In this document: one piece after another, positions 6,505-39,066 of the stretch
Numbering within the stretch: the stretch's first letter is position 1
Layout of the letters: each line of letters begins with the position of its first letter
Assembly (NCBI GenBank): GCA_973895155.1
Contig: OZ316895.1
Coordinates: 13,441,186 to 13,505,185 of the forward strand
Direction of reading: 5' to 3'
DNA: 64,000 nucleotides
Source: Marsupella aquatica
Lineage: Eukaryota; Plantae; Marchantiophyta
The notes under the pieces: generated by a model
Database searches by the model: none
The model's input: the letters and a program-made list of their open reading frames with translations, nothing else
What the model was told of the DNA's origin: nothing
Program-made: the position numbers and the translations under genes

Positions 6505-7147
6505 CACTAGTAGAAACCGGGGCAATTTAGACCATACCTTATAGGACTAAGCCCACTAAGTCCTTTTTCCATACTTGAAACGACTCGCACCCATTGTACC
6601 GGTTTTGTTGAAGACTACAAAAGACTATTAGTGTTTTATGGTTCACTAAAAGACTATGAGAAGTAACCTTGCTACTTTGTGAACGGTCAATAGTCTAGCA
6701 CATCATGGGTAATGTTCACTTATGTTGAGGAGGGGTAATTCTATAAAGAGGGTGATATCAAGGGGCATAACTCAATAAATGGCCTTATTTGTGACCAAAA
6801 AGGTTTTGGAGTGAGGTTCATGGAGGGTGGACTACGGAGGGATCGATTACTAACTCCATCTATAAAAGGCCGAGATGCACAAAGGTAGATTTGTACCGGT
6901 CTCAATTCAAGGGGGTGTGGGTTTAGGGTTAGGGGGTTGTCCAGCCGAAGAACACTCGATTGAAATAGTGACGCAACGGTTTAGGGTAAAGGAACATGTT
7001 TAGGGACCCTAACTTGTTTGCTGCCTTGGGAGGATCTTGAGAGCCTGAGCTTGCAAGCGGCATGCACTCTAAAAATGGCCCCTGCCATTGCAAAGATAGT
7101 CTGGCCACAGTCGACTTGTCAAGACGTTTAAGGGGTTTATATGTCAA

Positions 7148-7625
7148 GGCTAGGGGGTGGCTGGGTTATGTGGGGGAGTTGACAGATATTTGGGTCTTGA
7201 ATTATGGTAACACAAGTGTCCCTATAATATTGATGAAGGGAGCATGGGTGAAATCAGAATGGCAAAGGCCAATGGCCACCATGAAGCGTGATCCTGATGG
7301 GTTCTTGTTGGCCAATTTAGGTCTAGAGTACCAGAATGGTCTGAGCCTTTTGTTTTCCCCAGCCAAGTTGAACAGGCTTTCTTTCTAGATGTGGAGGGGT
7401 CACATGACTGGAGGGTGGTATGCCATAGCCAATCAAGCACGAAACAGGCGGATGGATGGAAATAAAGTAGAGTTCAGTTTGGATGACCATGCTGCATTTG
7501 AGCATCCTAGTCAGGAGACTGTAGTTCCAGCTCGGGCAGGGACCGACTACATCCCGTTAACATTGAGAGAGACATATGATGAACCTGGGGAGATGGAATA
7601 TGATGAGGTTGATGATGTGCAATAG
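7148..7625 (+). pseudogene. C-terminal remnant of the CACTA TnpD transposase (DUF4216-like)
   Basis: YVGELTDIWVLNYG...WVK...DPDGFLLAN, then a frameshift to EPFVFPSQVEQAFFLD, typical of En/Spm transposase C-termini. Confidence 0.75.
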
Positions 7626-7802
7626 GCAACAGCTGGCGATTGGCAAGTATGAGGTTGAGGATGACTACCTGCACAGAGTCACAAAACGGGAATTGTTGCC
7701 TGGAATGATGTTTAGGATAGTTGGATATGCATGAAATTGATTGATACTTTGAATCTAGTGTGCTGATTCTCCCTGTTTGGTTGTGGGTGCTGTGCAGAAG
7801 CT

Positions 7803-10493
7803 ATGGGGGAAGAGGGTGATGATATGGAGACAGACATGGGGCTTGGAGAGTGGGGTGAAGAGGAAAGATTGGATATGGATGGAGATCCAGATGCAGGGGG
7901 CTCACAGAAAAATGCACCTATGCAGGATGCACAGGGCCCTCATCAAGTGCCAGGTAGGTGGGCAAATAGAGAGAAATCACATAATCCATACCCTAGAAGG
8001 AGCCAGAGTTATTGGCAAGGGACGCCTGATGATTATGATGATGACTATGATGGAGCAGAAGATGGATGGGATGAATATGAACACCCAGAGCGTGGTAGAG
8101 ACAGGTACAGAGGGCAATGGAAAGGTGAGGATGATGATTGGACAAGTAAGTGCCTTGTGCTAGTGATTTTGTGATGGTAGTAGAGATTTAGCTCAATATG
8201 GACTTATCTGATGTCTAGCTAGGGCAAAGAGTTTATCTGACAGGTCCATCAGTGTGGCATGTACTTGTTGGTATGCAGACTCTGATTGGGACAATCACGA
8301 AAACAACAAAGGCCATCCACGTTCAGATAGGAGGCAATCATTCACAGGCGGGAGAAACGGCCCTAATTCATCCAGACAAAGCAATTGGATAGGTGGTCCA
8401 GAACCATCTATGCGCCAAGGGAGAGGTAACTTGGTCATTGCAAAATTGCTCTGAAGTCCAGTGTATATTTGGCAGCAAAATTTATGCTTCATACTTACCT
8501 AATGGATCCTGTAAATGTGCAGGGACTCCAAGGAGGTTTGGACAATGCAATCCAGGCCGTGGGGGGAGATCAGGCTGTGGAGGGACCCAGGGCCGTGGGG
8601 GGACACCAGACCGTGGAGGGACACCTAGTAGCGCTTCAGGGAGTACCAAGGCAGGAGACAGTAACAAATTTGGTAAAGTAGAAGTGAATTCCGATGGTTG
8701 GATAACTCCCACATGTGATGGTAAGAACTGTTGGCATTCTGACCTAAGAGGAGAAGTATTGTCTTGGTTAGATTTGAGCATTACAGAGTTTAGGAGTCTA
8801 AACAAAGCTGATTGGGCTGCTATCTGCAAGGACATTCTTGAACGGTGGGACTATGTTGGTAATGATGGTAAGGGCCCAGTTGAAGATTGCATATCAGATT
8901 ATGCAATGAGGATTTTGAAACAAGAGAGGCATAGGTTGAAAAGGATGTGGATAGACAATGGTTCTAACAGGAGAATGCCACGCACCACCCCCATCATTGG
9001 AACTGGATCAATGGACACGGTTAATCAAAGGGTTCATGTCGGAGGCTGGATAGAGCAAAAGTGAACTGATGTCAAATGCTCGAGGCAAAGTGAAACACCT
9101 TTCACAGGCTGGGAGAGGAAGTTATGCTCCAGTGAAAGAACAATTGGTCTTAAGGCAGTGACATGCCTGATAGTAAGCCTCAAACTTATCATCTTGCTAC
9201 CATTATTATATTTTCATTAACAATCAACACTTGGTTTCATTCATATGTATGTTGATGTGGACTGCAAAAGAAATTGACAGGTGAAGAACCATCTGCACAA
9301 GAAGTGAGAGAGGAGTTCATGAAACAAAGGAGTGAGGTGACAAGTGTGACTTCCAAACAGGTGATTATGTTGTAATTCTGTATGTTCTGTGACTATTTGG
9401 CCTTGAGCATCAGAAAGAAATGTAGTAGGAAGTAAGCAACCAGTTCTTGGGGACAGTTATCTGAGATATGTTAGCCGTGTTATGATAGGGAACTGTTACA
9501 ACTCTCACAGAGATGTGTGAACGGTTGAAGTCATTAGAGTGTGGACTCCCTCGAGTGGAAAGTAAATTGGCTGATCGTTTGGATATTGTGGAGGCATCTG
9601 TAGCGAACCTTCTTGCATCAGTGGAATCTAATTTCAAGCTTGTGATTGAAAAATTGGGTGGTTCCCAACCAAACAATGAGGGCAAAATTGTACAAAGTGT
9701 GCCCTTGTTAACAAAAAAGGAGTTGGAAAATCTGACACAGGTATGGAAATGACCCCGGCCCATTGTTCATTGTGTCCTATGTTCAAATGTTAGAAGTAAG
9801 TTTTCATGAATTGAGTGAATGGTTTGAATGCAGGAAGAGTGGAGGCAGAGAAGGACCCTATAATCGGTAAGCAGAATGGCAAGAAGGTTGCTGAGACAGG
9901 TAACCTACTATGATCCAGTACATTACATTTGAAAAGTGCATGGAGTTTTGTGAAGCTTAAGCCGGTTGGAGGTAATCTTTTCTGTAAGAACTGGTTGGAT
10001 CAACTGGGATCTGAAGTGACATCATGATTGATGTATCAGGTGATTCAAAGAGCAATAATGAAAAAGATGTGCCCAGTGCCTCAGTGACCATAGCCAAGGA
10101 GGTATCAGGTAAGCTGATGCTTTAAATTCCTCTATATGAATGTTGAGAAACAATTCAGTGGTTAATAGATTCAACCTGAATATTGTGGTGTGTTTATTGA
10201 TCAGCAGAAGCAGACATGGAGGATATGGTAATGGCAAAGAAGGGGAAGAAGACTGTTCATAATGGTAAGGAGATAGTGACAACTTTGTGGTTGGTGACAT
10301 GTACATTTAGCACATGTGATGAGTGATTGACTTATGTTGGACATGACACTGAATTGTAGTTGATGCAGAGTTGACAGACTCTCAACCAAGTGGGAGCAGG
10401 GTGAAGCGACGTCGGAACTTGGGAGCAACATTGGATGCAAGTAAGATTGTAGATGCTTCAATTGAAGCAAGTACAATGTTGGCAGATACTGAG
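7803..10493 (+). pseudogene. Multi-exon CACTA accessory (TnpA-like) gene, 5' part
   Basis: Short exons with GT..AG boundaries, including the helical segment DWAAICKDILERWDY...RHRLKRMW. The frame ...TMLADTE joins MMSQGNP at 23051 once S1 is removed. Confidence 0.6.
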
Positions 10494-11069
10494 AACACAG
10501 TGACGGACCAAACGAGAAGTATGACCACCAAACGAGAAGTGTGTTTTCGATTTCATGAAAAACGGCGAAAAATCACTAAAATTAAGATCAAAAAGGCTAT
10601 TTTGAGGATGAATCCAAAATCGCATCCAACATCGGATTTCAAATCGAGATACTGTCGATGCAAAAACACAGAATTGTCACAATCCAGAATTCCGATACAC
10701 TTCATCTAAAAAAAGTGCAAATTCCAAAACCTAGAAAAACAATGCTTTTCACGTGATCCTTCTAAAAGCTAAATCCGAGCGTCAAACAAAATGAGTAAAA
10801 CACAAGATTTCATTTTCGCCATCAAAATGGCAAACTGAAAATGGGATACGACGTATCCCATTTTGGATTCAACTATTGAACATGGACGAAAACCACACCA
10901 AATCATTCTCCTAACGCTTTCATTTAACCTCGGGTTAAAAATGTTTGAATTTTTGACTGCGGTTAAATTGAAAACTGCGAAAAACTGACCGCGGACTACA
11001 GTCGAACCACACAGTTAGTTAAGTTAACCCGACGACATGTCCGGAAACTTTTTAGCCCTTAACGCATGA

Positions 11070-12500
11070 TGAATACGAGATGGGATCCAAGTATCCACTA
11101 TCGTATTCAACCTCAATGTTTTCCACTTGCAACTTTGCATCAGGAGATCTTTCGACATGAATACCAACTGAGATCCATGGATCCCATTTTTTTTGCAAGT
11201 CCAAAAACTGATTGGGAAAACAGGAGGATGAATACCACATGGGATGGATCCCATCTAGTATTCAACCTCTACATTTTGAAGCATTTGCATCGCATACCTT
11301 GATATTCCAGTTTGAAGACCAACTGGGATCCACGGCGACTTCCTCAAAAATCTACAATTTAAATTTCAGCATTCTTTGAAAAGACAGACTCTCACGTGAA
11401 AAAACCCTCGTACGGACCAATCAGGGAATGCCACGTGTCCAATGCCCCCAAAAACTATAAAAGGAAGAGCTCGCATCTGTTTTTCATCTTCATTTCTCGC
11501 GATTACTTTGAGGTTCATTCAGTATTGAGTAGTTGTTTTCATAGAATACTGTAATCTGAATTTTCTCTGTTGGATACGAATACGTACTCCTATAGAACCC
11601 TTGTTTGATTCTCTATGGCGTCTTCAAGTGATGAGTCAATTTACAGTTCAGATGCATCTTCACCAGATGTTGTTCGAAAATTTATTCCATCTCGTTTGAT
11701 GAATGAATTACCAGCCTCACAGAGAGTAGTGCCAGAGATTTCATTTTCCTCAGAATCTGAAAAATCAGAGTCTGATTCAGAGTCTTGTAGGAGTGTTGTG
11801 GGTGCTCCAATTTCATACTATGTCTCTCCAAGTAAACCTCTTAAACGACGTCTACTTGTAAAGAAGCCTAATGTAGTTCCTACAACAGAGACACTTGGTT
11901 CACCGCGAACCCAGACAGATCTTCAAAGGCGAAGGCCCCGGTTTTTAATACCAAAAACAACGTTACCATGTAGGCCCGCCCGAAGATCTCCGTTGGTTTT
12001 TCCAATGTCTCGTTCTCCGGGAGCGAAGATAGCTGTGTCCAGTGTTCAATCACAGTTTGAGCGAATGAGGAGTCCAAATGTGCAGGAATTGCAGAGAGGG
12101 GCAGCCTCGGAGCCAAATTTGGTGGGTCGAATACCAAGTGGGATCCGTGGATCCCACTTGGTATTCCCTACTCAAATGTTGAGAAACGGTGAACGCAAAT
12201 TACCTATTTTGTCTCCTTCAGTACCAAATTCCTTGGGTCAAATACGAAGTGGGATCCATGGATCCCACTTAGTATTCCCTCGTGTTATTTTGCAGAATCC
12301 TGTGCCCGAGTCACCGGTCTTACGGATTTCCAACCCGAGTTCTGATGGTGGAATGCGAAATAGGATACGCGGATCCCAGTTCGTATTGCGCAACGGAAAA
12401 TTACCAAGTCATGACGCAGAATAGCAAGTGGGAAAGTTTTCACTTTGAAGTCCCAAAGGACGAATACGAGTTGGGATCCATGGATCCCAATCGGTATTCC
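11070..12500. repeat. Dispersed S1 palindromes, GGATCC variant
   Basis: Perfect 18-bp-arm palindrome GAATACCAAGTGGGATCC-GT-GGATCCCACTTGGTATTC at 12129-12166. Relatives at ~11071, 11158, 11229, 12241, 12354 and 12462. Confidence 0.85.
11417..11462 (+). promoter_or_regulatory. Putative Pol II promoter of the S1 transposase
   Basis: CCAAT (11417), CACGTG G-box (11432), CCAAT (11439) and TATAAAA (11456), ~155 bp upstream of the ATG at 11615. Confidence 0.55.
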
Positions 12501-15463
12501 CATCAGTTATTTCACAGAGTGGTAAAATTAACAACATGGGACTTTGGAGCCCTTTGGCGAGGATGCAGTGTGAGGTTTTTGGATCTTCCATTGGACGGCA
12601 AGCGCAGAACGAAAGAGGGAAGAGATCTAGTGTCCAAAAAATTCCTTGGAGATTATTGCGAAGTGAGCTGCCGGAGAGAGGGCCCAAAAATTCAAGGGTA
12701 CATGCTAAATTGAAACTTGTCCAAAGATTATTCAATGGTCAAGATGAGCCCTCAAGTCGAGAAGAATCACCTAGGCTGGGATTACAGTCTCAGAGACAAG
12801 TGGGCGGTACTCCGACTGAAGATGTGAATATCATTAGAATATTTCAAACTAGAAATCTCCGAACACCTATTACATTTTCAGAAGACTCTGAAGAGAGATC
12901 AGAGGAGGCTGCAAATGACAGAGAGACTGCTGTAATCTCAAATGTTGTTGAAGAGATCCTGGGAGGTGAGATTGTTCATGAAACAGTTACAGAAAATGTG
13001 GAGAGTGGAAACAACTCTACAGAAAATCTTTTTGTTTTAAATTCTAATTCACTAGAAAATAGTGGGGGGTAAGTTCTCCCGACACTATTCAAGATAGAGT
13101 AGAGGTGACAAGACCCAGCAAGAAAATCAGAGATCAGATGATTAGAAAAGATAGACTTACCATTGCAAATCTAAAAAAAACACAAAATTAAAGATATTTT
13201 TAAGTATCCCTGTTGTGACAAGTTTTGCTTGAGGTCTCTGGGTCTAGAGGAATGCTCAAAACAACGCAAGTATTATTTTGGTCTTAAACACTTGCAAAAA
13301 AATATTTTGCTACGAGGTTGTATCATGAACAACTGTAGTACTTCTCGTGGATATAGTGTAAATGGACAACCTATATGTAGAGGAGGATTCAAGAAACTAT
13401 ATTCTTTAGGTAATAATAGATTGGCAACAATCCATGCAAACATGTTTACAAGGATTGAACGAGATACCTTTTGTAAGGAAGACTCACCTTCATTTCTAAA
13501 CTTGGTGGAATGGTTGAAAGATTTTTTCCAAAAAAATATGGATAGTCTTCCCCATAAAGAGATTCATCACTTGCCAGACAATTGGACAAAGCAAGAGATA
13601 CATGGAATCTTTGAAGCTGAAACAATGTTGCGAGAAGAACAACAAGTTACATATTCTTATTTTTGCGTGTTTGGAAAAAAAAGTTTCCAAATGTACGAAT
13701 TCCTAAAAGGAGCCGATTTTCTACTTGTGGTCCTTGTACTGAATTCAAGGCTCTTCGGGACAAAGCAACAACTGAAGAGGATAAAAGTAAGTTCCACTAA
13801 CTATAACCTTCAACTTTAATTTGATGACATGTAATTCAATATTTATCAAAGTTTATCCTTAGTTATTGATTTTTAATTCATTGCTATTGTATCATTTCAG
13901 GAAAGTATATCAATGCCCTTGTGGAGCATCAAAAAGTACAATCATTGGAAATGATGAAGTTAGCCAAGCATCGTAAAAAATGCTATGATGAGCCCAACAA
14001 GTATTTGGGTATTTGTATAGATGGTATGGATCAAAAGAAAACAGAGCTACCACATTTTCTTCGTTGTCCAAAGAACATGGATGAAAAGTATTTTATTCCA
14101 ATACATGTTGTAGGTTGTCTCATCTTCAACAGGAACCTTGTAGCAAAAGTATTTTTGACATATCCCAATATCCATAATGATGCAAACTTGACCATACATG
14201 TTATTCAAAATGTATTGAATACATGGGATGGGACATTACCAAGAGTGTTATATCTTCAATTAGATAATACCACTCGGGAAAACAAAAATAAATTCTTGAT
14301 GGCTTATTAAAGTGGGTTTCTTGTTGGTCGGTCATACACATGACCAGATAGATCAGATGTTTAGTAAATTTTCGTCTAGGTTAAACAAGCACAAAGCATT
14401 TCGCTTGGAGACTCTTGAGGATATTATTCGACGAGCATATTCACCTGAAGCTTTGATCATATTTGTGGATGAAGTAGCCGATTTTTGAAAATTTGTCAAT
14501 GAAAACGACCAGCCAAATGAGAAGGGAGTCTCAGGTAGAGTCTTGAGAGATCTCAATCTCATAACTTTTCAAAGACAATTCAGATTCAAACGAGTCATGG
14601 AGGATGGAAACAAAGAGACAAAATTTCATGGGAAACATCCTTCCACGACCCAGGATTGGGGAGATGCAATGACGTTCGTCAATTACATTCCAACCACAAG
14701 AATGTGGGTTGTTGCACAAATATCACTGAAGTCAGCAAAAGGTGTTGAGAGGGATGATGTCCATGATTCTTCCAATACTGATGGTGCATTAACTACTCTG
14801 GTGAAATATGAAAAAGCTATCCAGGAAGGTTTCAATTACTTTGACAATGAAGATAAACTTTGGTGGATGAGTTTTTTTGAGAAACAAAAAGATATTATCA
14901 AAAACCACCTAGAGGAAGGTGAGTGGTTATTTGAGTGGGTTTGGCCGCAACAAAATCAAGGTGCACAACTACTTCCAAGGGTGAGAAATGAACTTGTTGA
15001 AGAAGGTGTTGATCCAACTTTGGTTGACAAAGTTGCTGGACCACAGAGAATTATGTACTCCGGACCTCGACGAAAGCAAGTTGAATTTGGAGATTTCAGA
15101 GATATGGAAGTTAACAATAAGTGGTCCATGATATGTGTAGCGGCACACAAGGATCCAGAAGGCAAGTTGTTTTGGATGGCAAAGGTGTCAAAGATTTTGA
15201 CAAGAACTGCAGACATTCCTGAGAGAATCAAAATCACATGGTACACAACTGAGGCAAGTGCTGAGTCTGCTATTGATGGGAAATATTTTCCAGAGAAAGA
15301 TAATATATCTAATCGACTTCTCCAAGATGAACTAGTTCTATCATCAACAGCGGTGTATGCATACAACTTTGCGCTTTTAAGTACTAATCAAATAGCAGCA
15401 AAAACTAAAAAAATTATAGAGTCTACTATATTAGAGAGAGGTTCTGCACACTCAGAGGATTGA
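11615..15463 (+). pseudogene. S1 transposase (Sola1-like DDE family), disrupted
   Basis: Motifs ICIDGMDQ, LYLQLDNTTRENKN and FLLVGHTHDQIDQMFS, with upstream Cys clusters. Intron 13787-13900. Has frameshifts, a small deletion near 14310 and stops. Homologous to 35065-38808. Confidence 0.85.
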
Positions 15464-15474
15464 GATTGATGTCC

Positions 15475-16419
15475 TTAAACAGGTACATGGATCAATTTTA
15501 GAATTTGATCTCGAATGAATTTTTTAAGGTTACATGCTCTTTTACAATTGTACCATTTTTCAGTAAATAAAGACTGTGCATCAAGGCATTGTGTAATATG
15601 CCATTGAATTCTGATTTTGTCCATATTTTGAAGAACAAATAGACCACAATCTGAATTGTTTGGTTGTTGAGGTACGTGAGAAAGAATCTTAAAGTTAGTC
15701 CAAAGTGTTTAATAATTGAACTAAATAAAAGTTGAAATAACTTTTCAAATCCTTACCATTGGATTGTATATCTCCACAACTCCCATTGGAACTTTTCCAA
15801 AAAATAATTCCCATTCCATTGTAAAATATCTGCAAATTATCATTCAAAGTTCTTAGTCCAAAGTGTTGATATTTATGTACCACATAAATAAATTCAAATT
15901 GAAAAAATGTAATAGAATATATACGTACCTGCTTAGTATTGATCCAATTACATGGGTTGAGTGTAGACCGGCGAGAGAGTCTAGATGATACATTTTGATC
16001 GAAGATTCAATCCGATCCAAACATATTACAACCAGACTCCAGTGCATGCTCATGTGAATTGGCATGAGAATGACCTCAATTTGGGAAAATGGTGGCTTGT
16101 AATAATTCTGCATCTTTTGAATTGATTCCAACAAGGTCTCGGCTGGTTCTGTTTCAATCCTTGAAACAAGCCAAGGGTAAAAAAAAGAGGATAATGTGTT
16201 TACTGAGGGAGCCAGATCTCCATGTTCCCCGGTTATTAATTGTGGGTAAAATTCCATTATTTCATCACCCAAATATTGACCGGGTTCAAGTTGGCTCAAT
16301 GTTTTATTGTCCAAAAGAAATCCACTAGAAGGATTGTGTGAGAATCTATGCCGAACATGTTTCAATACAAAATCCTCCTTTGGTTCCTGCAAAGACATTA
16401 CTTTGTGAAATAAGAACAT
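15475..16419 (-). CDS. Ulp1-family (C48) SUMO/ubiquitin-like protease carried by S1, three exons
   Basis: YLGDEIMEFY, SSFFY, PIHMSMHWSL (His) and HLDSL (Asp) in 15929-16419. Short exon ~15757-15829. Last exon has VPQQPNNSDCGLFV (Gln/Cys) at ~15635-15676 and a stop at 15475-15477. Confidence 0.85.
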
Positions 16420-16498
16420 AGTCCAATCATAATCTTCCTCAATATTTCACAAGTTTGGATCAATAGATACAACATGAGAGAACTAATCAAACTTAAGT

Positions 16499-19400
16499 CT
16501 ACACCTCAAGGAATGAGCCAAGATCAAGTGTCGGAGCTTCATGTTCCACTTCATCCTCTTCATCCTCATCATTGTCGTTCTCCTCCGCGGTTGTAATAAT
16601 GCAAGTTCCAGTGGTGAGGGTGCTCGTAGTACCACCAATAGGTGGTTGAACCTCAAAGCTCATGGGTCCTGTACCCGCCTCGGTTGCTTCATCATTCAAG
16701 TCCCATGATTCATCAAGCGTGACAAGTCGGGTCCGGATACAATCCCCCTGGCTTGCACTGAGCTCCACGGCTATCACCGGACGTTTCCCTAACAAGGCAG
16801 CGCATGAGGTCAAACCACTCCCCGCACATAAATTAGCAACCCAATCCCCTACTTCACTAAAATGTTGAACGAACCAATCTGCTAAAGCTATCAGTTTCTG
16901 GTAAGGGTTCACTATTTCTCCCAATGGTGTTACATATTTCTTTGTAACACAAGGGACTTTTATGATGTTTATCCTTTTCTCATCATGTTCAAAATTGTAC
17001 ATGTCTCTGGTCCTCATACCACTCTCGTGATAATATCCGATTGACCAGTTTTCAAAAGCCCAAGCCAATCGATTCCCGGAAGGATGAGCATGTACATTTG
17101 GCTTCTCCCAAATTCCAGCCTCTACACCTGCGTTACAAGTTTTTCCAAGAGCATTCATCACAGACCAAGTTTGCTGCAAAGAGTGAATCACAACAAATCT
17201 CCACATCTTTGAACTTGTCACCTTGGCAAAACAATTCACCATATCCACAATATCACTCTCTGAAAATGGGACCTCATCATTTTCAGAGCCAGGCGCATTG
17301 AATCCATAAGGAATGTCTGCAATTGCAAGTGTGTAATTCCTTTTCTCTACAAACTTATCCAGCGCCCTGACATCTCCACAATGCAATGTATATCTGATAA
17401 AATTTCCGTCAGCGTTTTTCCATCGATGGTCACTCGACTCTGCTTCAACCGTTTCAATCCCACGACGACGGTTGTAGTTCTCAATCGCTTCTTGAACGTA
17501 ATTCTTAAACCCCGGGGGAATAACACTCGAAGTCAGCTCCTCCGTAGGCTTCTCAACCGCATTGGCACCAATTGCATCTTTGTTCTTCTTCTTCGAAAAA
17601 GCTTTCAACTGCAAACGCAAACTTGTTAAAAGAATCTGGAGGAAAGACAATGGGGAGATAACCATTTAGGAATTCAAACAATCAAATCTGGATGACGAAT
17701 GCGACATGGGATACTCCGTATCCTAATTTGTATTCAACCAAGCAAAAACCACTGTCAAACATCACCACTGTCAAATAACCACAAGTGAATCCGAGATGGG
17801 ATACCCCGTATCCCACTTCACATTCGACCAAGCAAAAACCACATTGAAACATCTCAAATGTCAAATAACCACATTGAATACGAGATGGGATACCGCATAT
17901 CCCACTTCGAATTCAACTAAGCAAAAACCACATTGAAACATCACAAACTTCAAATAACCATAAGTGAATCCGAGATGGGATACCGCGTATCCCACTTGGC
18001 ATTCAACCAAGAAAAAACCGCATTGAAACATCAACAACATCAAATAAGCACAAGTGAATCCGAGATGGGATACCCCGTATCCCACTTCGCATTCCAACAA
18101 GAAATCCATGAAGAAAACCTCCAAACATGGCGAAACAAATAGAAAAGTCCAATCAGTGGAAGGGGAGAACATACCACATCGGAAAATTTCCCACTCCATC
18201 TTTCAAGCTCGGCAGATTCTGTTTCTTTTGGAAACATTCGTTTGCAAGTCACCCAGTCTTTCTGCCCTGACAACTGAACAAAAAGCTTGCTAATTTTCAC
18301 AAGTTTCTTGTAACTCTCGACTTCTTTTGCCATCTGCTCCAAAGAGATCATCCGGTCCTTCACTCGGAGAAGAAGGGACTCCAAAAATTGGTCATGTTCA
18401 ATTCCCTGGATTGCTCTCCAAGGTGTCAAGGTAAGACCCCCTGCAAGCTTATTCAAAGCTTTTGGAATCGACTGCGCTTTTCCCTTTCCTTTCTTGAGTT
18501 TCTTGATAGGTGACTTCTGCATATTCTGCCCTTTGATCTCCAACTTGTTCCACATCTCAAAGATCTGGTCTTGGAGTTCCCAGACCTTACCCGACCTAAA
18601 CACAATTTGGAAGAGAGGCTCATGCTTCTTCAGGCTTGTGGCGTCCCCCGGAAAAAACCCGTCGAGGCAAACCTCCATCGCACACGCTTCTCTAGTCTCC
18701 TTGGTTTTTGCCATTCCTCTGGCAAGGAAAATCTTATGCATTGTTCGGATTTGATCAATGTTGTTCATTTTTTTCCTGTACTCCTGATCAATATTATGTT
18801 GGATGCTAAGTTTCTGAATGTCCTCCCTTGTGAGACCAGCATACACCCAAGCTTGGAGTTCATTGAAGATCTCTCTCCCATAAGCCTGATACAATTCTCT
18901 CTTGGCCTGAGCACCGTGATTACCTCCAATCACTCGATATTTCCAGCTTGTTGCCTTTTCTGGGTCCGAGTCTATCACTGTCGGGCAGTCTTCCGGGATC
19001 ACAAACAAGACAAATGGCGTCGTGAAATTTGTCGGATTTATTTTCATCAAAGTCTTGATGTTCTCCACATGCAACCGATCGACTGTTCGAACCAACATTG
19101 AGTTCTCGTCGTCAATATCGTCAAGAAGAAGGAGGTTAGTTGTTTTCAGAATAACTGTTGTCTTCTGAACTCGCTTAGTCTCCATCAACCGAGACACTTC
19201 TTCACGAACCACAAGTGTCTCTTCCCGCTGCAAAGCTGTGGTGATATCTGTTGAATCGTTTTTCTTTTCTTTAACAGCTCCTCTAGATGATAAAGAAAGC
19301 CCACCTGACGAAGTTGAAGGAATCTGAGGTGTCTGTGAAATTGGTGGGACCAAAGATGAGACAACACTTCCTGGTGCAAAAGGTGCGCGCTTCTGGATGT

Positions 19401-20133
19401 CACGTCGATCCAATTTGTTCTTGACAATAGCTTCTCCTGACACCGCTACTTTAGAACCTTCCCCAGAGAGTTGATCTGCAAGCTTCCTCTTTGCCGGTTC
19501 CTTAAGAGAAACTGTGGCAGATTTCTCCTTTGTCGAGGGTGTTCCAGACATCTCCCCTGACTTCAAAGCCGGATCGGTAGGCTTCGTCACTTTCAACTTC
19601 AAAGGCCGCTCTTTGACGCCAAAGTCAGCTCCAACAACTGACCTATACGCTACCTTCGTAAAATCCTCAACAACCCTCCAAGACTTCAAGACAAATTTCA
19701 AACACCAATAAGAAAAGTCCTCAATCTCCGGCACTTCCGAAATTAGCTGGCAGATTGGGTCATCAGGAAATGTGTTCATCAAGACCCGATCAAGTTTCTC
19801 GTAGTTGAGGACAACTACAATGAAGGCATTGTTCGGAAGAATGCAAAGGTACATTGGAATCTTCTTCAGCTGTTTTGTTTTTGAGTCGGTGATATCCGCC
19901 TCCCCGGTGTCCACGACTAATCCATAATGGCAATGGTCTTTACCCTTAACGATAACCAACCACACCACTGGACCTTCATAGGCTCTGTGAATATCCATCG
20001 CCCGAGCATCCCTGAAGTACCACCTATTCCTCATGAGTTTCTCCTCCGTGTAAAGGTCTTTCTTCCAAATCTCATCGACGATGGATGTCCGTGAAGACTG
20101 GGTCGAACCAGACGACTTTGATTTGTTCGACAT
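16499..20133 (-). CDS. ParB-like domain fused to a beta-class DNA amino-methyltransferase (N6A/N4C fold), ~1030 aa, two coding exons
   Basis: Exon 20133-18175 has VRTVDRLHVENIK...YRVIGGNHGAQA. Phase-0 GT-AG intron 18174-17636. Exon 17635-16499 has LHCGD, motif IV ADIPY, WEKP, motif X NPYQK, motif I NLCAGSGLT and VIAVEL, in beta-class order. No stops. Confidence 0.85.
17697..18095. repeat. Five ~90-bp units, each with the palindrome GAAT.CGAGATGGGATAC-NNN-GTATCCCA...ATTC, filling the ParB-MTase intron
   Basis: Units start at 17697, 17787, 17876, 17966 and 18056. Confidence 0.92.
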
Positions 20134-20234
20134 GATCCTGAAAAAGATTGACACACTTAGAACCAGACCAAACCACTTGGCATCCAACATCAACAATTGC
20201 CAAGTCTGATGCAAAGAACGAACAAGAGGGAGTT

Positions 20235-20613
20235 GAATGCGAAATGGGATACGCGGTATCCCAGTTCATATTCAAAGTCAAGAAAGAGCGAGGAGGTTCG
20301 GATGGAAGACTAAAAAGAGGGTGTTCAATGCGAGATGGGATACGCGGTATCCCATCTCGTATTCAATATTGAAAAGAAGGCCAAATAATAGAGTTGAATA
20401 CAAATGGGGATACGGCGTATCCCTCTCAGGATTCAACAATTAACCAAACGAGGAGGGGAGAGTTTCTTCAGGTTTTACCAATTTTTTGGTTTCGATTCGA
20501 GCAAATACGAAAAGCTATAGAGATGTTGCGGCCCGAGAAAAATGCGGAGGTAAACAAAGTTGATAAGAAAAAGAAATGAGAGTAATTTTTCTGACCAGGC
20601 ACTCCTATTTATA
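20235..20613 (-). promoter_or_regulatory. 5' region of the ParB-MTase gene: three palindromes in a putative 5'-UTR intron, plus a TATA box
   Basis: Palindromes at ~20235, 20326 and 20395. Splice acceptor TTTTCAG at 20138, just before the ATG. TATAAATA at 20613-20606. Confidence 0.55.
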
Positions 20614-20967
20614 CTTTATCACCTTCGTATCCACAGGCGATAAGGTCTCCACAGGCGATAATGTGTATCCAAAAGCGTAGGGTTGGAGTCCGGATGTCTA
20701 TGTATATTTTTTTCTCTTGATGGGACTAGAGATAAGGCATATCCCCAAGTCCTTGTATTCAACCAAATAGATTTTACGCGTAGCGAATTGGGTAACTCTT
20801 TATTCATTCAGAATTGTGCCACAAAAAAAACTAAGTTGATATTCTTAAAAAGAGTCTTTACAAAGAGCCCATTCAAGATGGCTCTAAACCAGACTAGAAG
20901 CTTTCCCATACATTTCCAAGAGCCTCGCTTGCTCATCTTTCTTAAGATTGTGCCAGTCTTCTTGAAA

Positions 20968-21435
20968 TCAATTTAGGTCAGACCTTGAAAATAAACCTAA
21001 GAAATTGATTGGAGGAAGATTTGGTGTTTCCATCCTAACAAAAGCTTCAATATGAACATTCTGAAGGGGTTTTCCATCGGGAATGCTTGTCAGCATTTCA
21101 TTTACTTCCTCAAGCTGGCTTTTTGCTAGTCTAAGAATACCCCAGACTCGTGTACAAATTACGAGCTGGTTCCATTTCTTGGAGGTGCATCCAAGCCACA
21201 CCATGGTTTTTAATCGCATCAATCTTTCATCAGCTTGGTTCTTGGAGGAATCAAACTCATCCTCTATACAACAAACTTTCAAAATGGGCCAAATGAACGT
21301 TTCAACAATCTCGTCAGGAAGTCCATCCAAAAGCAATCCGGATTCCCTTTGGCCACTTTTTTGTTGAATTTGTTCCTTCTCTTTGTCGAATGACATCGCT
21401 AACCTTGTAAAGACAGGGTTCTCAGTGACTGCCAT
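20968..21435 (-). CDS. F-box-like protein carried by S1
   Basis: LLDGLPDEIVETFIW...LGCTSKKWNQLV fits the F-box consensus with an insertion. Confidence 0.55.
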   Translation of the reverse strand: MAVTENPVFTRLAMSFDKEKEQIQQKSGQRESGLLLDGLPDEIVETFIWPILKVCCIEDEFDSSKNQADERLMRLKTMVWLGCTSKKWNQLVICTRVWGILRLAKSQLEEVNEMLTSIPDGKPLQNVHIEAFVRMETPNLPPINFLGLFSRSDLN

Positions 21436-21611
21436 TCCAAAATAAGAGTGGATACCTGGAGTAATAAATGAGATGGTGAGCTCTTTCTCAGCAACCTACA
21501 AAATAGTGATGGAAAAACTGATTTTATTTCTTTGATCAAAATAAAAATATATTCACAAAATGTTTGACCCAAGAACGTTCACCTAAACACTTACACACTA
21601 ATCAAGAAAAT

Positions 21612-21947
21612 TCAACGCGATAAGTTAACCCAAGGATCTTCGTTCCAAATCCGACAACAAAAATATGCCAATCGATGATATTTGTTTTGGGCATCACGAC
21701 AATAGTTACAAGAAGAATTAACAGAGTGCAGACAACCACTCAAACATATTCTCGACCGAATCGGAACTCCATCCTCATTTTTTTCACAAAACTCTATTCG
21801 AAGTGGATTCAAACTATCATGTGGATCCACGCCTCCGGTCCATAGCGCGCCTAATCCAGCACGAAGAACTTTGAGTGCAACTAATCGCTTATACAATCGA
21901 CGAGCACATTTCTCAAGGTTTTGATTCTGAACCGCCATTAGACTCAC
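21612..21947 (-). CDS. Small Cys-rich ORF of unknown function within S1
   Basis: 111-aa open frame containing CLSGCLH..CNYC; minus-strand TATA box at 22691-22700. Confidence 0.35.
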   Translation of the reverse strand: MSLMAVQNQNLEKCARRLYKRLVALKVLRAGLGALWTGGVDPHDSLNPLRIEFCEKNEDGVPIRSRICLSGCLHSVNSSCNYCRDAQNKYHRLAYFCCRIWNEDPWVNLSR

Positions 21948-22129
21948 AAGAGAAAACTTCGTTTTTCAAGGAAAGCTTAAGCTTGAGTGGGTGTCGGTCA
22001 CTGAAAGGCAGCAAGAGCTTCAGTGCGTACAGTTCAGTTGAACTTCGCCTGTGAAACAATCAGTAATCCATAAGGTTTTTCCCATCATTCAAATAAACTC
22101 TAGGTAAATACCACATGGGCAATCAAAAC

Positions 22130-22895
22130 TGGACATTTGAAGAGTGAATCCCAAACGGGATACGCCGTATCCCATTTCACATTCAACGTTGAGGTTTTGA
22201 CATTTATGTTCTAAGATGCTTCATTTTCGCAGGTTGGATGCGACATGGGATACCCCGTATCCCACTTCGCATCGATCCAACCTCCTTTTTTAGCTAAAGA
22301 GAAAACAAACTGGACATTTGAAGAGTGAATCCCAAACGGGATACGCCGTATCCCATTTCGCATTCAACGTTGAGGTTTTGACATTTGGAGTCTACGATAC
22401 TTTATATTCGGAGGTTGGATGCAACATGGGATACCCCGTATCCCACTTTGCATCCAACCTCCTTTTTCAGCTAATATGAAACAAAAACTTGAAATTTGAG
22501 GGTTGAATCCCAAACAGGATACGCCGTATCCCATTTGGGATTCGTCCTCGCCATTTTCAAAATGATTCTCACCTATTCGTCAAAACTGATTTTCGGGGAA
22601 TACGAGTTTGTATAGACGGTGTGCATTCGTCGAGAGTAAGAGTATACAGAGCGAGAAAAAATGAGCATAAAATTCTCAAGAGTTGATCTCCTATTTATAG
22701 TTTTCTCACTAACCGTGGTTAGTATTTGACTGCAGTTGCATCGCAGTCGGTTAAATGTTACCATTGAGAAGAATTGTTTTGGAATATTCTTGTCGGGTAA
22801 ACCAATATCGGCACTTTTACTGCGTTTTTTTTTTTTTTTTGGAATTCTGCGGTTGGATCCAAAATGGGATACGCCGTATCCCATCTTTGTATTCG
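22130..22895. repeat. Right subterminal palindrome array of S1 (90-bp spacing, 180-bp higher-order dimer)
   Basis: GGGATAC-NNN-GTATCCC units at ~22146, 22236, 22326, 22416, 22505 and 22853. The last one mirrors 10838-10873. Confidence 0.9.
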
Positions 22896-23050
22896 TGTCG
22901 ATTTTTCCTATTTTTTCAATTCGAAAAACTAGTTTTTAGTGGGAATACTAATTCCGTATCCAAGAATTTTTTGCCTTAGAAACTTTTTTCGCCGCGGGCA
23001 AAACGAGAAGTGTGGTCACACTTCTCGTTTGGTCCGTCACCGTGTTTGAG

Positions 23051-23521
23051 ATGATGTCGCAGGGAAATCCTGCTACACAATCAGAAGTGTCAAATATGGA
23101 TGCAGATTCTTTGAAGAAGAGTGTAGCCAATTCTCGATCATCAGCACAAAACACTCGTGCCAAAGTCATGACTCGCAACCAAGGTATGAATAATGTCATG
23201 TATAAGCCACCCAGGAAAGCCAAGAAGAACAGCCAGGGTAAGGTGGAGGTGATAGCCACAGCAGAGCCAGTCCATAATCTTCTATCATGGGAGGATGACT
23301 CGCAGGTATGTGTGGGTACAGGCATTTTGCGACCGGATCATGCTAAATTCCATGGCAAAGTGGTCCCGGATGACCATGTAGTAGTGTTGTTGACTACAGT
23401 GATTGTATCTGATTGTAATTTGCCATTTCGGAATAGAGACGATGATCCACCTCAGGAAATAATTGCAGATGCAATAGGATCTCTTGTGCTCTGGCCATCA
23501 GAGTGTGTTAGTCTACAGTGA
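23051..23521 (+). pseudogene. 3' part of the CACTA accessory gene, with a Tnp1/En/Spm-like C-terminal beta-barrel
   Basis: VGTGIL...FHGKVVPDDHVVVLL...LPF...DAIGSLVLWP. Confidence 0.75.
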
Positions 23522-34458: not shown

Positions 34459-34494
34459 ATCAGCCTATTCATTAAAAGTGTATTATTATTTGAT

Positions 34495-34820
34495 TTATGT
34501 ACATTTGGGCAATGAAAAGTGTACTTTTGGGCTTGAAAAAATGTACATTTGGCCAATGAAAAGTGTACATTTGGGGATAGAAAAGTGTACAATTGGCCTA
34601 AAGAGTGTACATTTGGGCAATGAAAAGTGTATATTTGAACATCAAAATAGGTACATTTGGCTTTAAAAGTGTACATTTGAGTACATTTGGCCTAGAAAGT
34701 GTACATTTGAGTGAAAAAAACATACATTTGGCTTAAAAAGTGTACATTTAAGTGCATTTGGTCTAGAAAGTGTAGCTTTGAGTGCAACAAAGTGTATATT
34801 TGGCCTAAAAAGTGTACCAA
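34495..34820. repeat. S2 left subterminal repeats AAAGTGTACATTTG (more than 10 copies); also at 50767-50845
   Basis: Directly visible next to both TIRs; palindromic TGTACA core. Confidence 0.88.
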
Positions 34821-35064
34821 CTCTTATTATAATCATTTAAAAGAAAGAAATGAATAGAAAAATATTTTTAATTATGCAAAAAAAGCAAACATTCATATTC
34901 ATAACGATCAAAAGTTTAGAAAATAAGGAGATAGTATAACTAACACTCAATGGCATGGTCTCACATTAAAACTATTAAAATAGTAAATAACTAGTAGGTA
35001 CTTGTTACTATCTAAGTAACTATCTATTTAATAATTATTATAGCTTTGCAAGTAACAACTAAGT

Positions 35065-38000
35065 CTACTTGTCCATCCTTTGGAGATAACTTTGGACAGT
35101 TTGTAGAACATTTCGAGGAATCTTCAAACCTCTGCCCGCCATGTTTTCTTCTTTCATGCCAGATTTAAAACCATACATTGCAGAATTTGCATACTGCCAA
35201 TGTTGAGCGTTCTCACCAAACCCTGGATCTCGTTCCCATGTCTTAGTGGACATGAAGCAGTTTAGATACCGTGCACTCTCAGTCACATCAAGTTTAGAGT
35301 GTTTAGGCCTCCACCATTCGACTGGAAACATTGGAGCATATTGTTGAGGCAGAGGAGGGTTTGTTGGAGATGTAGTTGGGACTTCATGCTTAGGGTCAAC
35401 CGAACCCAAAGCTCTCACCAACCAGAAATGACCTCCACCATTTTTATTCTCCCAGTCATCCTCGGGTCGAAGAAATACAAAGTTCCCTTCACAAATATCC
35501 TGTAGGGGAATCCACCGTCCTTGTTCTCTCTCAGCTCGAGATCCAACAAATGGTGCCGCTTGATCTTCCATCTCTTCCAAGACCTCATTTTGAAGAGCCG
35601 TCATCTCCGCATTCTCCTCATCTTCACTTGGAGGACCACTTTGTTCCGGTTGGTTGACCTTGTAACCAGTGCCATGGTTAGTCTTAGGCCAAAATCCGTT
35701 TTTCAAGGGAAATTGAGTACTTCCCTCCCCTTCTAGTGCAAGCCCATTTGTCAACAACTCCACAATTCTCTCCCAATATTTCACAAGAGGAAATCTTTCC
35801 TTATATGCTATAGATGTCTCATAAGTGCAACTCCTTCTCAAAAAATCAAGGTACTTGGTAAGAAATGGGATAATCTCTTCAGATTTTTTGTGTATCTCTC
35901 CAATGGATTTAGCTAAGGGCTCTCCACTAGGTAAAAGAATAGAATTTGTTGTCAGATCTGTTGCCCAAATGCACCTTCCACCAACTGGAGCCCAAGCTTG
36001 CTTTACATGGGACTTATACTGAAATATTGGTACATTATCTCTCATAGAGAAAAGAAATGATACGGGTTTTGAGTGACCTTGAATATCTTTAACTTTGAAA
36101 GTTTGAAGATATTCTTTGTAAGATGCAACTTTTTGTATCAATCTGGGAACTGGATGAATGCTCTCACATTCCCAAACCTCTGCCATAAGAGCAAGGAGAG
36201 TTGCAACTTCCTTGTGCTGAACTTGATATGATACCTTCGAAAAGAGTGCATCAACATCTTCGTGCGTATGACCAACCATTAGAAAAGACATTTGAACAGT
36301 TTCAAATACTCCTCTACTCACAAGCTCACTACAAAATGCCATGACAGTCTGGTTTTTGTTATCCTTTGTTGAGTTATCCATTTGCAGTGTTAGGTGCCTT
36401 GGCAAGGGCTTGAAAGATGGACTGCCTTGTTCCCCATGCATGTCCCCTCCTTGATCCTCACCATGTTGGGTGGAGACCGTCTCCGTCTGACTCTCAGCTG
36501 CATCTTCAGAACCAATATACCTATTCATTGGAATACTCTTTGGTTCCAAATATCCCTTAAAAAATGCATCAAAGCCAAGAAGGGCTTGAAAGAAAGGTCT
36601 ATGAGGTTCCAAATAAAGGCCATCCAACATGTCACCTGTCTTGTCTCCATTGTACTCTTCAAGGTCTCGAAGACACTTAGCCAAGGATGTCACCGTGAAA
36701 TCAGTATCTCCTGGCCAAAGGCCAGTGACACTAAAGTGTGCATATACTCCTGGATCCCTTCCGTGGGTCAACATCCCTGTGAGAGCAATAGGTAGTGGCA
36801 TCCCATGACCGGAAAGTGATTTAGGAGTACTGACCATTTTTGGAATCCACGTCTTTGCTTGATCCATCTTGTCGTGAATGATGCAAAGATATTCCCCTGG
36901 ATGTTGCTTAGCCATCACTCGATGAGCATAGTAAACATATCTACGTGACATTTGCTCACGAAGATGTTGCGCTCGTTTTTCTTCAATTTCAGCACGTTCT
37001 TTTTTCCTTCTTTCTCGCATCAAACTATCTTTGTATTCACAACAAAGAGTACACTTGGCAAATGCACCATCTTTATGGAAACTGAAGTTTGCAAATGATT
37101 TTCTCCAAATCTTGTACAAAGTATTCTCTGTAACTGGGGGAAGCCCCTCTTCCTTCATCTTTGTTCTCACATCTTCCAAAATCTCCAACTTCTTGTAACA
37201 TGCTGGAAGACGATACTCAATGGAGTTGGTCCCATGAGCCCCAGCATAAGGTATATGAGGCATGGGCTCTGCATTTTGAGTCAAAAAATCCTCCAACAGA
37301 GCTCGTGCATGCAAGGTATTTGACCTTGTTTTCATGGAGCCCGTGTTTCCATGGAACCCAATTTTGCAACCCTCCACATATCTCCTTTTGTAATCATAAT
37401 ATTTCGTGTGGCTAAAGCCATGGATGATTGCAAATGCATGTCTACATACGACCATACCCTTGAGAACATGGTGCCCCTTATCACGAACATCATCTTCTCT
37501 GTAGTGGAAGAGGTTGAAAATGTGTGATGTTTTTGACTCGCTATACATTCCGTGAAATTCTATCCGGATATCTTCTATGTCTTCTCTTGGCATAGTCAAA
37601 CAACATTTCTGCTTGCAACAATTCTCTCTTTTAATTTCATCAATCAAAGCTTCCGTTGTTTTTGAAACTGCCTTGGTTTCCAACAGCCTTCTCTTCTTTT
37701 CAATCGGATCTACATGAGTCCTCCTGTTGAAATTGTATGGCCTTGTGCGCGGCATTCCCCTATCATTTACATTTGGATACAGATCATCCCTATCCACCGC
37801 CTCCATCCTCTCTGAACCTTCAACCAAAATGTCCGACAAAAATTTCCCGTTTGCAAGTAGTTTTGTTGAATAAATCCGCCACCGAACCAAAGTGATTACT
37901 CCCCTATGGAAGTTGGGAAAGTATTGTGATTCCACCACATCTTTCACAGCAATCCCTACATGGTCCTCGCCAAGGATTTCATTGTCAACCGCCGCGGTTT

Positions 38001-38808
38001 CTTGAGGCACAGTAATGGTCCCCGTGGCAACCCTATTGGTTCGATCTGAACCAATGTATAGTTCGACCAACTCTGACATCCAATTTGACTGTTGGAAATA
38101 GTCACAATTAGTTTTAGAAATTTCAGCTGAGGGAGACTCCACAACAAAACTCCGCTCTATGTTGATATCATCATCCGCATCCTTCTTTGAGAAACTCTTT
38201 CTACTTAGGACATCTGCCACATCCCAGAGAACCCATGAGTCTTTTGCCTCGTCAATTGTGTCAGCCCCATTGTGTTTGTAAGGTAAAACCCTACTCCCAT
38301 GAAAAACATCAGTGACCCTCACACTGATCCGTGATTCACCAAGTAAAATGTTGTGACATCTTTCCATTGGATTTGTATTGAAAACAACTCCAAGGGCTAC
38401 ACAACACCCAAAGATGAACATTTCAACCTCATCCCCTTGCCTCAGAGTGGTCGATGAGTCCTCCTCTACAGTTGGATTTTTCTCCAAATTACTCTCCGGT
38501 CGATTTGAACAACTACCTACACTAATGCGTTTTTGAGAATTTGTTATCGTTGATAGATATGCGCAAGACAAATCCCAAATAACGCAAGAATCAATGGCAT
38601 CAAAAAGGTTTTCTGCCCGAGGCATTGGAAATGGTAGTTTTGTGGTTTGGTCAAAAACTTTCTCAATGAGAACGCCCATTCGATTCTCTCTCAACAATAT
38701 CTTTTGAACACTATCTTGCGGGTTGATTTTTTGAACTGTCCCGCTTGCAACATCGTAACCACCAATTGTCAATATCACATTGTCGCCTCTCAAAAATATT
38801 CCGGTCAT
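35065..38808 (-). CDS. Intact S2 transposase, 1247 aa (Sola1-like DDE core, three N-terminal En/Spm-type barrel repeats)
   Basis: IIHDKMDQ, LQMDNSTKDNKN and FLMVGHTHEDVDALFS; Cys clusters CCKQKC, VCRHAF and CTLC; uninterrupted frame. Confidence 0.9.
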   Translation of the reverse strand: MTGIFLRGDNVILTIGGYDVASGTVQKINPQDSVQKILLRENRMGVLIEKVFDQTTKLPFPMPRAENLFDAIDSCVIWDLSCAYLSTITNSQKRISVGSCSNRPESNLEKNPTVEEDSSTTLRQGDEVEMFIFGCCVALGVVFNTNPMERCHNILLGESRISVRVTDVFHGSRVLPYKHNGADTIDEAKDSWVLWDVADVLSRKSFSKKDADDDINIERSFVVESPSAEISKTNCDYFQQSNWMSELVELYIGSDRTNRVATGTITVPQETAAVDNEILGEDHVGIAVKDVVESQYFPNFHRGVITLVRWRIYSTKLLANGKFLSDILVEGSERMEAVDRDDLYPNVNDRGMPRTRPYNFNRRTHVDPIEKKRRLLETKAVSKTTEALIDEIKRENCCKQKCCLTMPREDIEDIRIEFHGMYSESKTSHIFNLFHYREDDVRDKGHHVLKGMVVCRHAFAIIHGFSHTKYYDYKRRYVEGCKIGFHGNTGSMKTRSNTLHARALLEDFLTQNAEPMPHIPYAGAHGTNSIEYRLPACYKKLEILEDVRTKMKEEGLPPVTENTLYKIWRKSFANFSFHKDGAFAKCTLCCEYKDSLMRERRKKERAEIEEKRAQHLREQMSRRYVYYAHRVMAKQHPGEYLCIIHDKMDQAKTWIPKMVSTPKSLSGHGMPLPIALTGMLTHGRDPGVYAHFSVTGLWPGDTDFTVTSLAKCLRDLEEYNGDKTGDMLDGLYLEPHRPFFQALLGFDAFFKGYLEPKSIPMNRYIGSEDAAESQTETVSTQHGEDQGGDMHGEQGSPSFKPLPRHLTLQMDNSTKDNKNQTVMAFCSELVSRGVFETVQMSFLMVGHTHEDVDALFSKVSYQVQHKEVATLLALMAEVWECESIHPVPRLIQKVASYKEYLQTFKVKDIQGHSKPVSFLFSMRDNVPIFQYKSHVKQAWAPVGGRCIWATDLTTNSILLPSGEPLAKSIGEIHKKSEEIIPFLTKYLDFLRRSCTYETSIAYKERFPLVKYWERIVELLTNGLALEGEGSTQFPLKNGFWPKTNHGTGYKVNQPEQSGPPSEDEENAEMTALQNEVLEEMEDQAAPFVGSRAEREQGRWIPLQDICEGNFVFLRPEDDWENKNGGGHFWLVRALGSVDPKHEVPTTSPTNPPLPQQYAPMFPVEWWRPKHSKLDVTESARYLNCFMSTKTWERDPGFGENAQHWQYANSAMYGFKSGMKEENMAGRGLKIPRNVLQTVQSYLQRMDK

Positions 38809-39066
38809 TCCTACAACGTGTTCACCTACACAATTTAAAATGTAAAGTATTAGTTAACAATGGTCCCAAATAGGAAGCAGATAGGTGTGAACCCTATCCA
38901 AGGACAGTGCGCAAATAGGGATCATCCCCATCAAGCAAAATAATAGGTCCATAAACAATCCTTAGCTAGCCCTAAGATCCCTGATCCCTATTCAGACGTT
39001 GGATAGGAATGATCCCTGTCCAGACGGTAGATAGGTTCTGTCACTATCCAAACAGTGGACATAGAT

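Follow-up and report, generated by a model that had tools for sequence, protein, structure and literature searches.

Within the window, a stretch of 64,000 nt from the liverwort Marsupella aquatica (contig OZ316895.1, positions 13,441,186 to 13,505,185 of the forward strand), lies S1, a Sola-like DNA transposon that carries, besides its transposase, a gene predicted to fuse a ParB-like fold to a beta-class amino-methyltransferase (MTase) domain. The transposase is encoded on the plus strand and the ParB-MTase gene on the minus strand, and a long palindrome recurs along the element, including the introns of the ParB-MTase gene. The features of S1 that bear on this gene are as follows.

10494..23046, unstranded: S1, a Sola-like DNA transposon of 12,553 bp with terminal inverted repeats (TIRs) that begin with AACAC and agree at 33 of 35 nt; target-site duplication (TSD) TGAG at 10490-10493 and 23047-23050
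11616..15463, plus strand: transposase unit, DUF7869 (motifs DGMD, LDN and GHTHD; Pfam PF25273, E 2e-18 and 7e-16)
15545..16395, minus strand: Ulp1/C48 protease gene with some three exons, immediately following the MTase gene (PF02902, E 4.8e-12; its separate exons carry the HW, D and QQPNNSDCG motifs in a single frame)
16499..17608, minus strand: coding exon 2 of the ParB-MTase gene (linker, beta-class amino-methyltransferase domain, acidic tail), with DIPY at 17317-17306, QKL at 16900-16892 and NLCAG at 16834-16820
17609..18174, minus strand: phase-0 intron (acceptor 17636 as the alternative), predicted from the sequence and from relatives, with five palindromes at 89-90-bp spacing
18175..20133, minus strand: coding exon 1 (N-terminal region of no known family, amino acids (aa) 1-320, then the ParB-like and helical domains, aa 322-653)
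20138..20478, minus strand: predicted 5'-leader intron (GTAAAA donor, TTTTCAG acceptor 4 nt before the ATG), with palindromes at 20246, 20337 and 20407
20607..20613, minus strand: candidate TATA box TATAAAT, named from sequence only
10831..22894, unstranded: 21 imperfect palindromes of 40-41 bp with half-site TGAATNCRARTGGGAT(A/C)C, the arms matching at 12-18 of 19 positions

The ParB-MTase gene is accessory cargo of a cut-and-paste element. Contigs from four public runs of two studies, one run being possibly the source of the window, provide the empty site, joining 10489 to 23047 in 4/4 runs, and the 4-bp TSD is consistent with Sola as characterized in the available part of PMC3627910. By eye, the DGMD, LDN and GHTHD motifs of the DUF7869 transposase resemble, yet differ from, a Sola2 alignment. 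The transposase of the window copy is broken: its frame shifts near 13659 and 14307 and meets a stop near 14488, as seen in the reading frames and in indels relative to sister contigs. At the right end of S1 (22999-23032), an inverted inner TIR motif forms a hairpin with 16-bp arms; at the left end the same motif is directly repeated. The whole element sits inside another highly abundant repeat (7000-10493 and 23047-23520), the open reading frames (ORFs) of which are without a convincing Pfam match.

The ParB-MTase locus is, judged from sequence and relatives, a real gene with predicted splicing. An earlier reading of the window made from its letters alone (the sequence-only reading) had connected two ORFs through a phase-0 intron, and this join holds: the minus-strand segments 20133-18175 and 17635-16499 give 1031 codons with zero internal stops, separated by 539 nt (18174-17636, GTATGT...TCCAG) with a T content of 40% versus 25-26% in the exons. 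The acceptor chosen in that join fares less well. A second in-frame AG at 17609 (TTTGCAG) would yield a 566-nt intron and a protein of 1022 rather than 1031 aa, the frame being open with either acceptor, and 17609 is probably the true site because the similarity of three protein relatives (P0028, P0038 and P0066) starts right after the Gln aligned with this AG and because the exons of two metagenome loci, L001 and L002, open at the matching basic stretch. Residue numbers refer throughout to the 1031-aa model (acceptor 17636), in which IGGNH is found at aa 402, DIPY at 760, NPYQK at 896 and NLCAGSG at 921. A GT-AG intron occupies the identical site and phase in L001 (89 nt) and L002 (100 nt), the products of which are 26-41% identical to the window protein, and similarity to the relative P0001 (54% identical) ends at the same donor. 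Conservation of the intron in relatives rules out a chance joining of ORFs, and a bacterial contaminant is ruled out by the introns and by nesting among Gypsy elements. The gene is likewise eukaryotic in style, as had been proposed, with the intron kept in relatives and TATAAAT present as a candidate promoter element.

The C-terminal domain of the predicted protein is settled as a beta-class amino-methyltransferase by motif order and modelled structure. The order of motifs IV, X and I and the fold are those of the permuted beta class. A 39-sequence family profile matches M.BceJIV, a DpnA-type HpyAVI enzyme, M.RsrI, CcrM and M.MboIIA at E 9e-19 to 1e-14, and Foldseek aligns the AlphaFold model of the domain (predicted local distance difference test, pLDDT, 95.7) to CcrM (E 4.9e-13), M.BceJIV (3.6e-11), PvuII (6e-10) and the Adineta N4CMT (8e-10). 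Motif order, family profile and predicted fold thus agree on the permutation that had been read from the motifs. A search with the MTase domain among 1.84 billion representatives returned 209 relatives at E <= 0.001, and motifs were counted as pattern matches within the 150 of these that were listed. Motif IV begins with Asp in 67/70 matches, with Asn in 2/70 and with Ser in 1/70, and DIPY, present in 28/70, is typical of the family. Motif X reads QKP in 58/74 matches and motif I has its Asp in 50/53; the QKL and NLCAG of the window copy depart from the family at these two places. The 14 close members that were aligned all share the Asp and Pro of motif IV and the QK of motif X.

The fold by itself names no base. 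The sequence-only reading held that motifs cannot decide between N6-methyladenine (6mA) and N4-methylcytosine (4mC), which is stronger than the evidence allows, since motif IV leans to one side. In the available part of PMC8885841, SPPY is given for most 4mC enzymes, DPPY for most N6A enzymes and (T)SPPY for the known eukaryotic 4mC enzymes; because motif IV of the family begins with Asp, this association would favor 6mA.

The assignment of aa 322-653 to ParB comes by structure only. Pfam detects neither domain in the window protein (both exons), a sequence-profile search of the PDB missed the ParB part, and aa 1-180 have zero sequence matches in the PDB. The model of aa 322-653 (pLDDT 81) has Noc and ParB as all ten of its top Foldseek matches (E 1.9e-5 to 9e-4), and a wide search with VIA-align pairs it with PadC (Z 10.1, root-mean-square deviation (rmsd) 2.7 over 98 residues) and KorB (Z 8.9 over 173 residues, rmsd 12.4). 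The predicted layout is a ParB/Srx N-terminal fold and then a helical domain, as in ParB, Noc and KorB. Fusion of a ParB-like fold to a beta-class amino-MTase, the core of the earlier claim, is consequently upheld by Foldseek and VIA-align for the former and by profile and Foldseek for the latter. The cytidine triphosphate (CTP) pocket of ParB carries a GxxR motif with an Arg. The claim of a ParB-like domain with IGGNH in the place of GxxR is borne out for the fold. The Arg is absent from 13/13 aligned members that cover the site, and the domain is, as modelled and aligned, a ParB fold without the canonical CTP pocket; one upstream Arg and one downstream HN are conserved around the GGNH/GGGH stretch. 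As a side observation, the top matches of the ParB-like part (18175-19170) in an ESM Atlas feature search are fungal DUF3723 clusters (score 0.94-0.95), a hint that DUF3723 is also ParB-like; DUF3723 is a conserved cargo gene of Starship elements, and 'ParB' is absent from the main text of the Starship preprint.

The S1 palindrome has all of its matches in the window (21/21) inside S1: three in the left subterminal region, four in the 5' ORFs of the transposase unit, five in the MTase intron, three in the leader and six in the right subterminal region. These arrays had escaped the sequence-only reading. The eight sites of the MTase leader and intron are 2.6-7.2 kb away from the nearer element end, and many of the 21 spacers are C/G-rich. 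A hairpin scan that is free of the motif finds 15 hairpins in S1 versus 0 in each of 15 Markov controls. The four sites within the frames of the transposase unit (12128-12500) are at an exact spacing of 111 bp (37 codons), read as peptide repeats and have a 2-nt spacer in place of 3. The window holds a second element, S2, that has a palindrome of its own.

34459-50896, unstranded: S2, a Sola-like element with a perfect TIR (25/25) and TSD GCAT, inserted in a Gypsy integrase
35065-38853, minus strand: S2 transposase ORF, DUF7869, open, 1262 codons
42380-43420: array of the S2 palindrome, 28-bp period
44935-48694, plus strand: S2 ParB-MTase gene, far diverged, without a DPPY-type motif (DFSR instead) and with an in-frame stop at 47420

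All matches of the S2 palindrome (39/39) fall inside S2, including the leader and the intron of its ParB-MTase gene. A third palindrome is found in L001, with two copies in the leader intron and one in an MTase intron, where L002 carries a variant of it. S1, S2 and L001 thus have three unrelated palindromes at equivalent places, and this recurrence of placement is the main reason for thinking that the protein reads its own element. The ParB profile missed the S2 protein, for which hhalign gives a modest match (probability 71, E 3.8e-5). The cargo of S2 also includes an NIF phosphatase-like ORF.

Relatives of the fusion protein extend through the streptophytes. An organism name is attached to 8/30 relatives checked (Chara braunii, four; Adiantum nelumboides, two; Ginkgo biloba, one; Riccia sorocarpa, one), Chara, Riccia, Adiantum and Ginkgo each have full-length relatives, and many relatives, including named ones from these genera, have both domains in a single chain. 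The range of the family is thereby widened to charophyte, liverwort, fern and gymnosperm, and the relatives, together with the surrounding Gypsy elements, by themselves indicate a host that is likely a land plant. Purifying selection acts on the family at the level of coding sequence, as shown by a ratio of non-synonymous to synonymous substitution rates (dN/dS) of 0.065 between L001 and L002 (334 codons, mostly MTase exons). Phage MTases match at about 24-29% identity; a 38-row tree of the MTase domain, with long branches and just two phage outgroups, does not settle the donor or origin, nor the placement of S2. One word-indexed protein search returned 2 relatives and another zero, and locus scans returned zero in metagenomes (single-protein query) and zero in viral contigs, with prokaryote genome contigs outside the scan. 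Four remote relatives of the MTase domain (P0099, P0109, P0123 and P0135) have C-terminal Cys-rich PHD-like fingers and are eukaryotic in look, a hint at a broader family that includes fusions to chromatin readers.

The S1 family is young, and the window copy is probably a young, host-methylated insertion in early decay, as its differences from sister copies suggest. Long contigs differ by about 1% from the window, and the differences described here are a selected 40 of 1564 rows. For S1 (39 listed), differences of C-to-T type number 19 versus 4 of the reverse (p 0.001), and 8/19 of the former are at CG, versus 14.5% of cytosines (p 0.003); the C-to-T excess and CG enrichment among these listed differences point to host pressure on S1. 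At position 16893 in motif X, all contig depth reads Pro in 3/4 runs, with no cover in the fourth, and QKL is therefore private to the window copy, as had been suspected from the motif. Contigs in all four runs have Arg for Q409 and Trp for S389. The window copy is probably impaired: its motif X has Leu instead of Pro, its motif I has Asn where most relatives carry Asp, Gln replaces the Arg that follows GGNH, and its transposase is dead. The frame is open, as first read, but does not serve as a sign of function: at about 1% divergence a frame of ParB-MTase length is stop-free by chance with probability 0.23, and openness therefore says little on this copy.

The reading that we prefer, with a probability of about 0.5, is that the S1 accessory protein is a self-targeting binder of the palindrome and writes 6mA at or around its sites; we infer binding, catalysis and effect alike. 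The spliced protein would be produced from intact sister copies, and a dimer would read the palindrome through the ParB-associated helical domain, much as ParB does at parS. The tethered MTase would then mark the introns, leader and ends of the element, and the mark, or the bound protein, may keep the genes expressible, or the ends usable, against host silencing by 5-methylcytosine (5mC), in a manner akin to VANC of VANDAL elements. Several observations weigh against this proposal. The helical domain matches ParB DNA-binding domains weakly (Z 4.0-4.9), and in all members aligned over the GxxR site the residue after GGNH/GGGH is G, S, T, Y or C instead of the Arg, so that CTP binding is not to be assumed. 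The coding differences of the window copy (7/11 listed are non-synonymous, p 0.22) fit neutral decay, and the Chara, Ginkgo, fern and liverwort relatives are known at the protein level only. Further points of this kind are shared with rival explanations. DPPY occurs in just 8/70 matches, the window copy itself being DIPY; streptophytes are reported to be without abundant 6mA (10.64898/2026.05.21.726589), which makes it puzzling how such a mark would be read; and the S2 paralogue, which has an in-frame stop as well, is without motif IV yet retains motifs X and I, and its element still has 39 palindromes, on account of which catalysis may be dispensable. These three also speak for an unlikely alternative, in which the protein binds without methylating, the MTase fold serving as a base-flipping or scaffold module and the bound protein shielding the element or recruiting chromatin factors. 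Against this alternative stand the residues that the family keeps: motif IV Asp and Pro and motif X QK do not vary among the close members, the dN/dS of 0.065 is drawn mostly from MTase exons, and the SAM-binding Asp is retained in nearly all motif I matches.

The palindromes may also belong to another protein. TIR elements often have subterminal repeats that are bound by transposase-associated proteins. If the Sola transposase or a different cargo protein bound the palindromes, spread by tandem duplication, and the ParB-MTase acted elsewhere (for example at the TIRs, on an excised intermediate or on target DNA), this would explain why 9/21 S1 palindromes are subterminal, as expected of transposase sites and another point against self-targeting, and why four more lie in the transposase unit. 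This account, which is rather unlikely, does not explain the eight sites far from the ends in the leader and intron of the MTase gene, a placement that recurs in S2 and L001; in addition, inverted-repeat arrays stand beside a ParB gene in Bostrychia on an element of another transposase superfamily, as described in the available part of that report (10.1101/2025.02.11.637652). If the enzyme is self-targeting but writes 4mC, the mark would, at palindrome spacers that contain CG, stand directly in the way of C5 methylation by the host. The fold agrees almost equally well with PvuII and the Adineta N4CMT, many spacers are C/G-rich, and eukaryotic 4mC writers are of the beta class. A 4mC activity nevertheless appears quite improbable, since the best profile and fold matches are N6A enzymes and since the eukaryotic (T)SPPY enzymes and the DPPY of most N6A enzymes (PMC8885841, as above) contrast with a family in which a Ser-first motif IV is found once in 70 matches. 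A bolder extension of the self-targeting 6mA proposal is doubtful: the palindromes would be private parS-like address codes in transposons of streptophytes, hosts that are reported to be without a 6mA system of their own; every element family would evolve a long palindrome for itself and place it in the introns of its ParB-MTase gene, at which a nucleotide-gated sliding clamp loads on the intronic palindrome and writes 6mA or 4mC on its own element only. If so, bacterial partition-type loading would have been reused in plant chromatin as an orthogonal, sequence-addressed epigenetic writer, and S1 and S2 would be two non-cross-reacting versions in one genome.

The closest published counterpart is Sola1-1_Ec32 of the brown alga Ectocarpus, which, according to PMC12477816, is 21.5 kb in length, has a 4-bp TSD and AACCG termini and encodes opposite its transposase a 1104-aa protein with a ParB-like and an N4C/N6A MTase domain, for which the authors propose modification of its own element. 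By this description, S1 shares the format of a giant TIR element (>10 kb) with a 4-bp TSD, termini beginning AAC and an accessory gene opposite the transposase, and the order of ParB-like then amino-MTase domain in about 1000-1100 aa (1022-1031 in S1). It differs in its plant host, its size (12.5 kb), its TIR (about 35 bp versus 282 bp), its Ulp1 cargo and its AACAC termini; moreover, the main text of the Ectocarpus paper nowhere uses the string 'palindrom'. In the Bostrychia Plavaka elements, as far as described in 10.1101/2025.02.11.637652, PAG2 combines an N6-MTase with SET and PAG3 combines ParB with a 2OG oxygenase. Like that of the S1 protein, the ParB-like domain of PAG3 is encoded by a giant DNA transposon, and tandem inverted-repeat arrays next to the gene are proposed as its binding sites. 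By contrast, ParB and MTase of Bostrychia are on separate genes of EnSpm/Plavaka elements, while those of S1 are fused, on a DUF7869/Sola-like element, and the repeats are within introns.

Other systems share parts of this design. According to PMC5735166, VANC binds motifs specific to its element, in introns and elsewhere in non-coding DNA, and VANDAL elements resemble S1 in an element-encoded accessory protein, family-specific arrayed motifs and Ulp1 cargo (PMC5735166 and PMC13317346, in the parts accessible). As described there, VANDAL/VANC is Mutator-like, with motifs of 8-9 bp, loss of 5mC and no ParB or MTase domain described for VANC, in contrast to the DUF7869 transposase, ParB and MTase folds and long palindromes of S1; the likeness would be a functional analogy only. 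Phage fusions of ParB_N to N6_N4_Mtase occur at terminase loci in the available account of PMC4738411. One of comparable build, ORF20 of Gardnerella phage vB_Gva_AB1, has the same domain order and an MTase part that aligns (hhalign probability 98.6, E 5.5e-16), but it is 411 aa in length, intronless and in a DNA-packaging context, with about 24% identity and a ParB part that failed to align. MpDN4MT1 of Marchantia and N4CMT of Adineta are, like the S1 enzyme, bacterial-type permuted amino-MTases in a eukaryote; in the sources as available they have SPPY, are host genes and have no ParB domain described, unlike the DIPY transposon cargo of S1. The chlorophyte ParB-HTH + Dam family (HTH, helix-turn-helix), as presented in the available part of PMC4738411, is multi-copy and mobile-like in a transposase-free neighbourhood and has an MTase of the EcoKI/TaqI group with NPP[FY]. 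It is likewise a multi-copy eukaryotic fusion of a ParB-type domain to an N6-MTase but has the HTH only and another enzyme class, and beta-class motif order and fold rule out membership of the S1 gene. Membership in the retrotransposon DAM clade is ruled out by a different enzyme class or element class; the DAM preprint deals with retrotransposons and leaves ParB and Sola unmentioned in its main text (10.64898/2026.05.21.726589).

Both the ParB-MTase fusion and the combination of ParB with inverted-repeat arrays are already published in algae, and these precedents rule out a categorically new system. A literature search, thin on subscription journals, found no description of the ParB-MTase family in land plants. 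The present locus adds three things: a range that takes in streptophytes, a family that is young and has its catalytic motifs nearly intact, and palindromes private to each element that sit inside the gene's own introns. With its youth, its near-canonical motifs and a well-defined candidate site, the family makes the self-modification proposal testable at this locus, and S2, with a different palindrome and a degenerate enzyme in the same window, provides a natural specificity control. If active, the enzyme would be a localized source of 6mA or 4mC in plants, relevant to the debate on whether plants have 6mA, and possibly a tool for targeted methylation.

Two further features of the window follow. 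In S1, a short ORF has a weak F-box-like stretch and is a cargo lead only.

20968..21495, minus strand: short ORF, weakly F-box-like over a stretch (match to PF00646 at E 0.72, which falls short of the cut-off)

Recent, near-identical repeat pairs (94-98%) occur at 27274-31945/39067-42361 and at 4202-6289/58254-60350, one of them inserted in the S2 palindrome region, and these are probably parts of long terminal repeat (LTR) retrotransposons.

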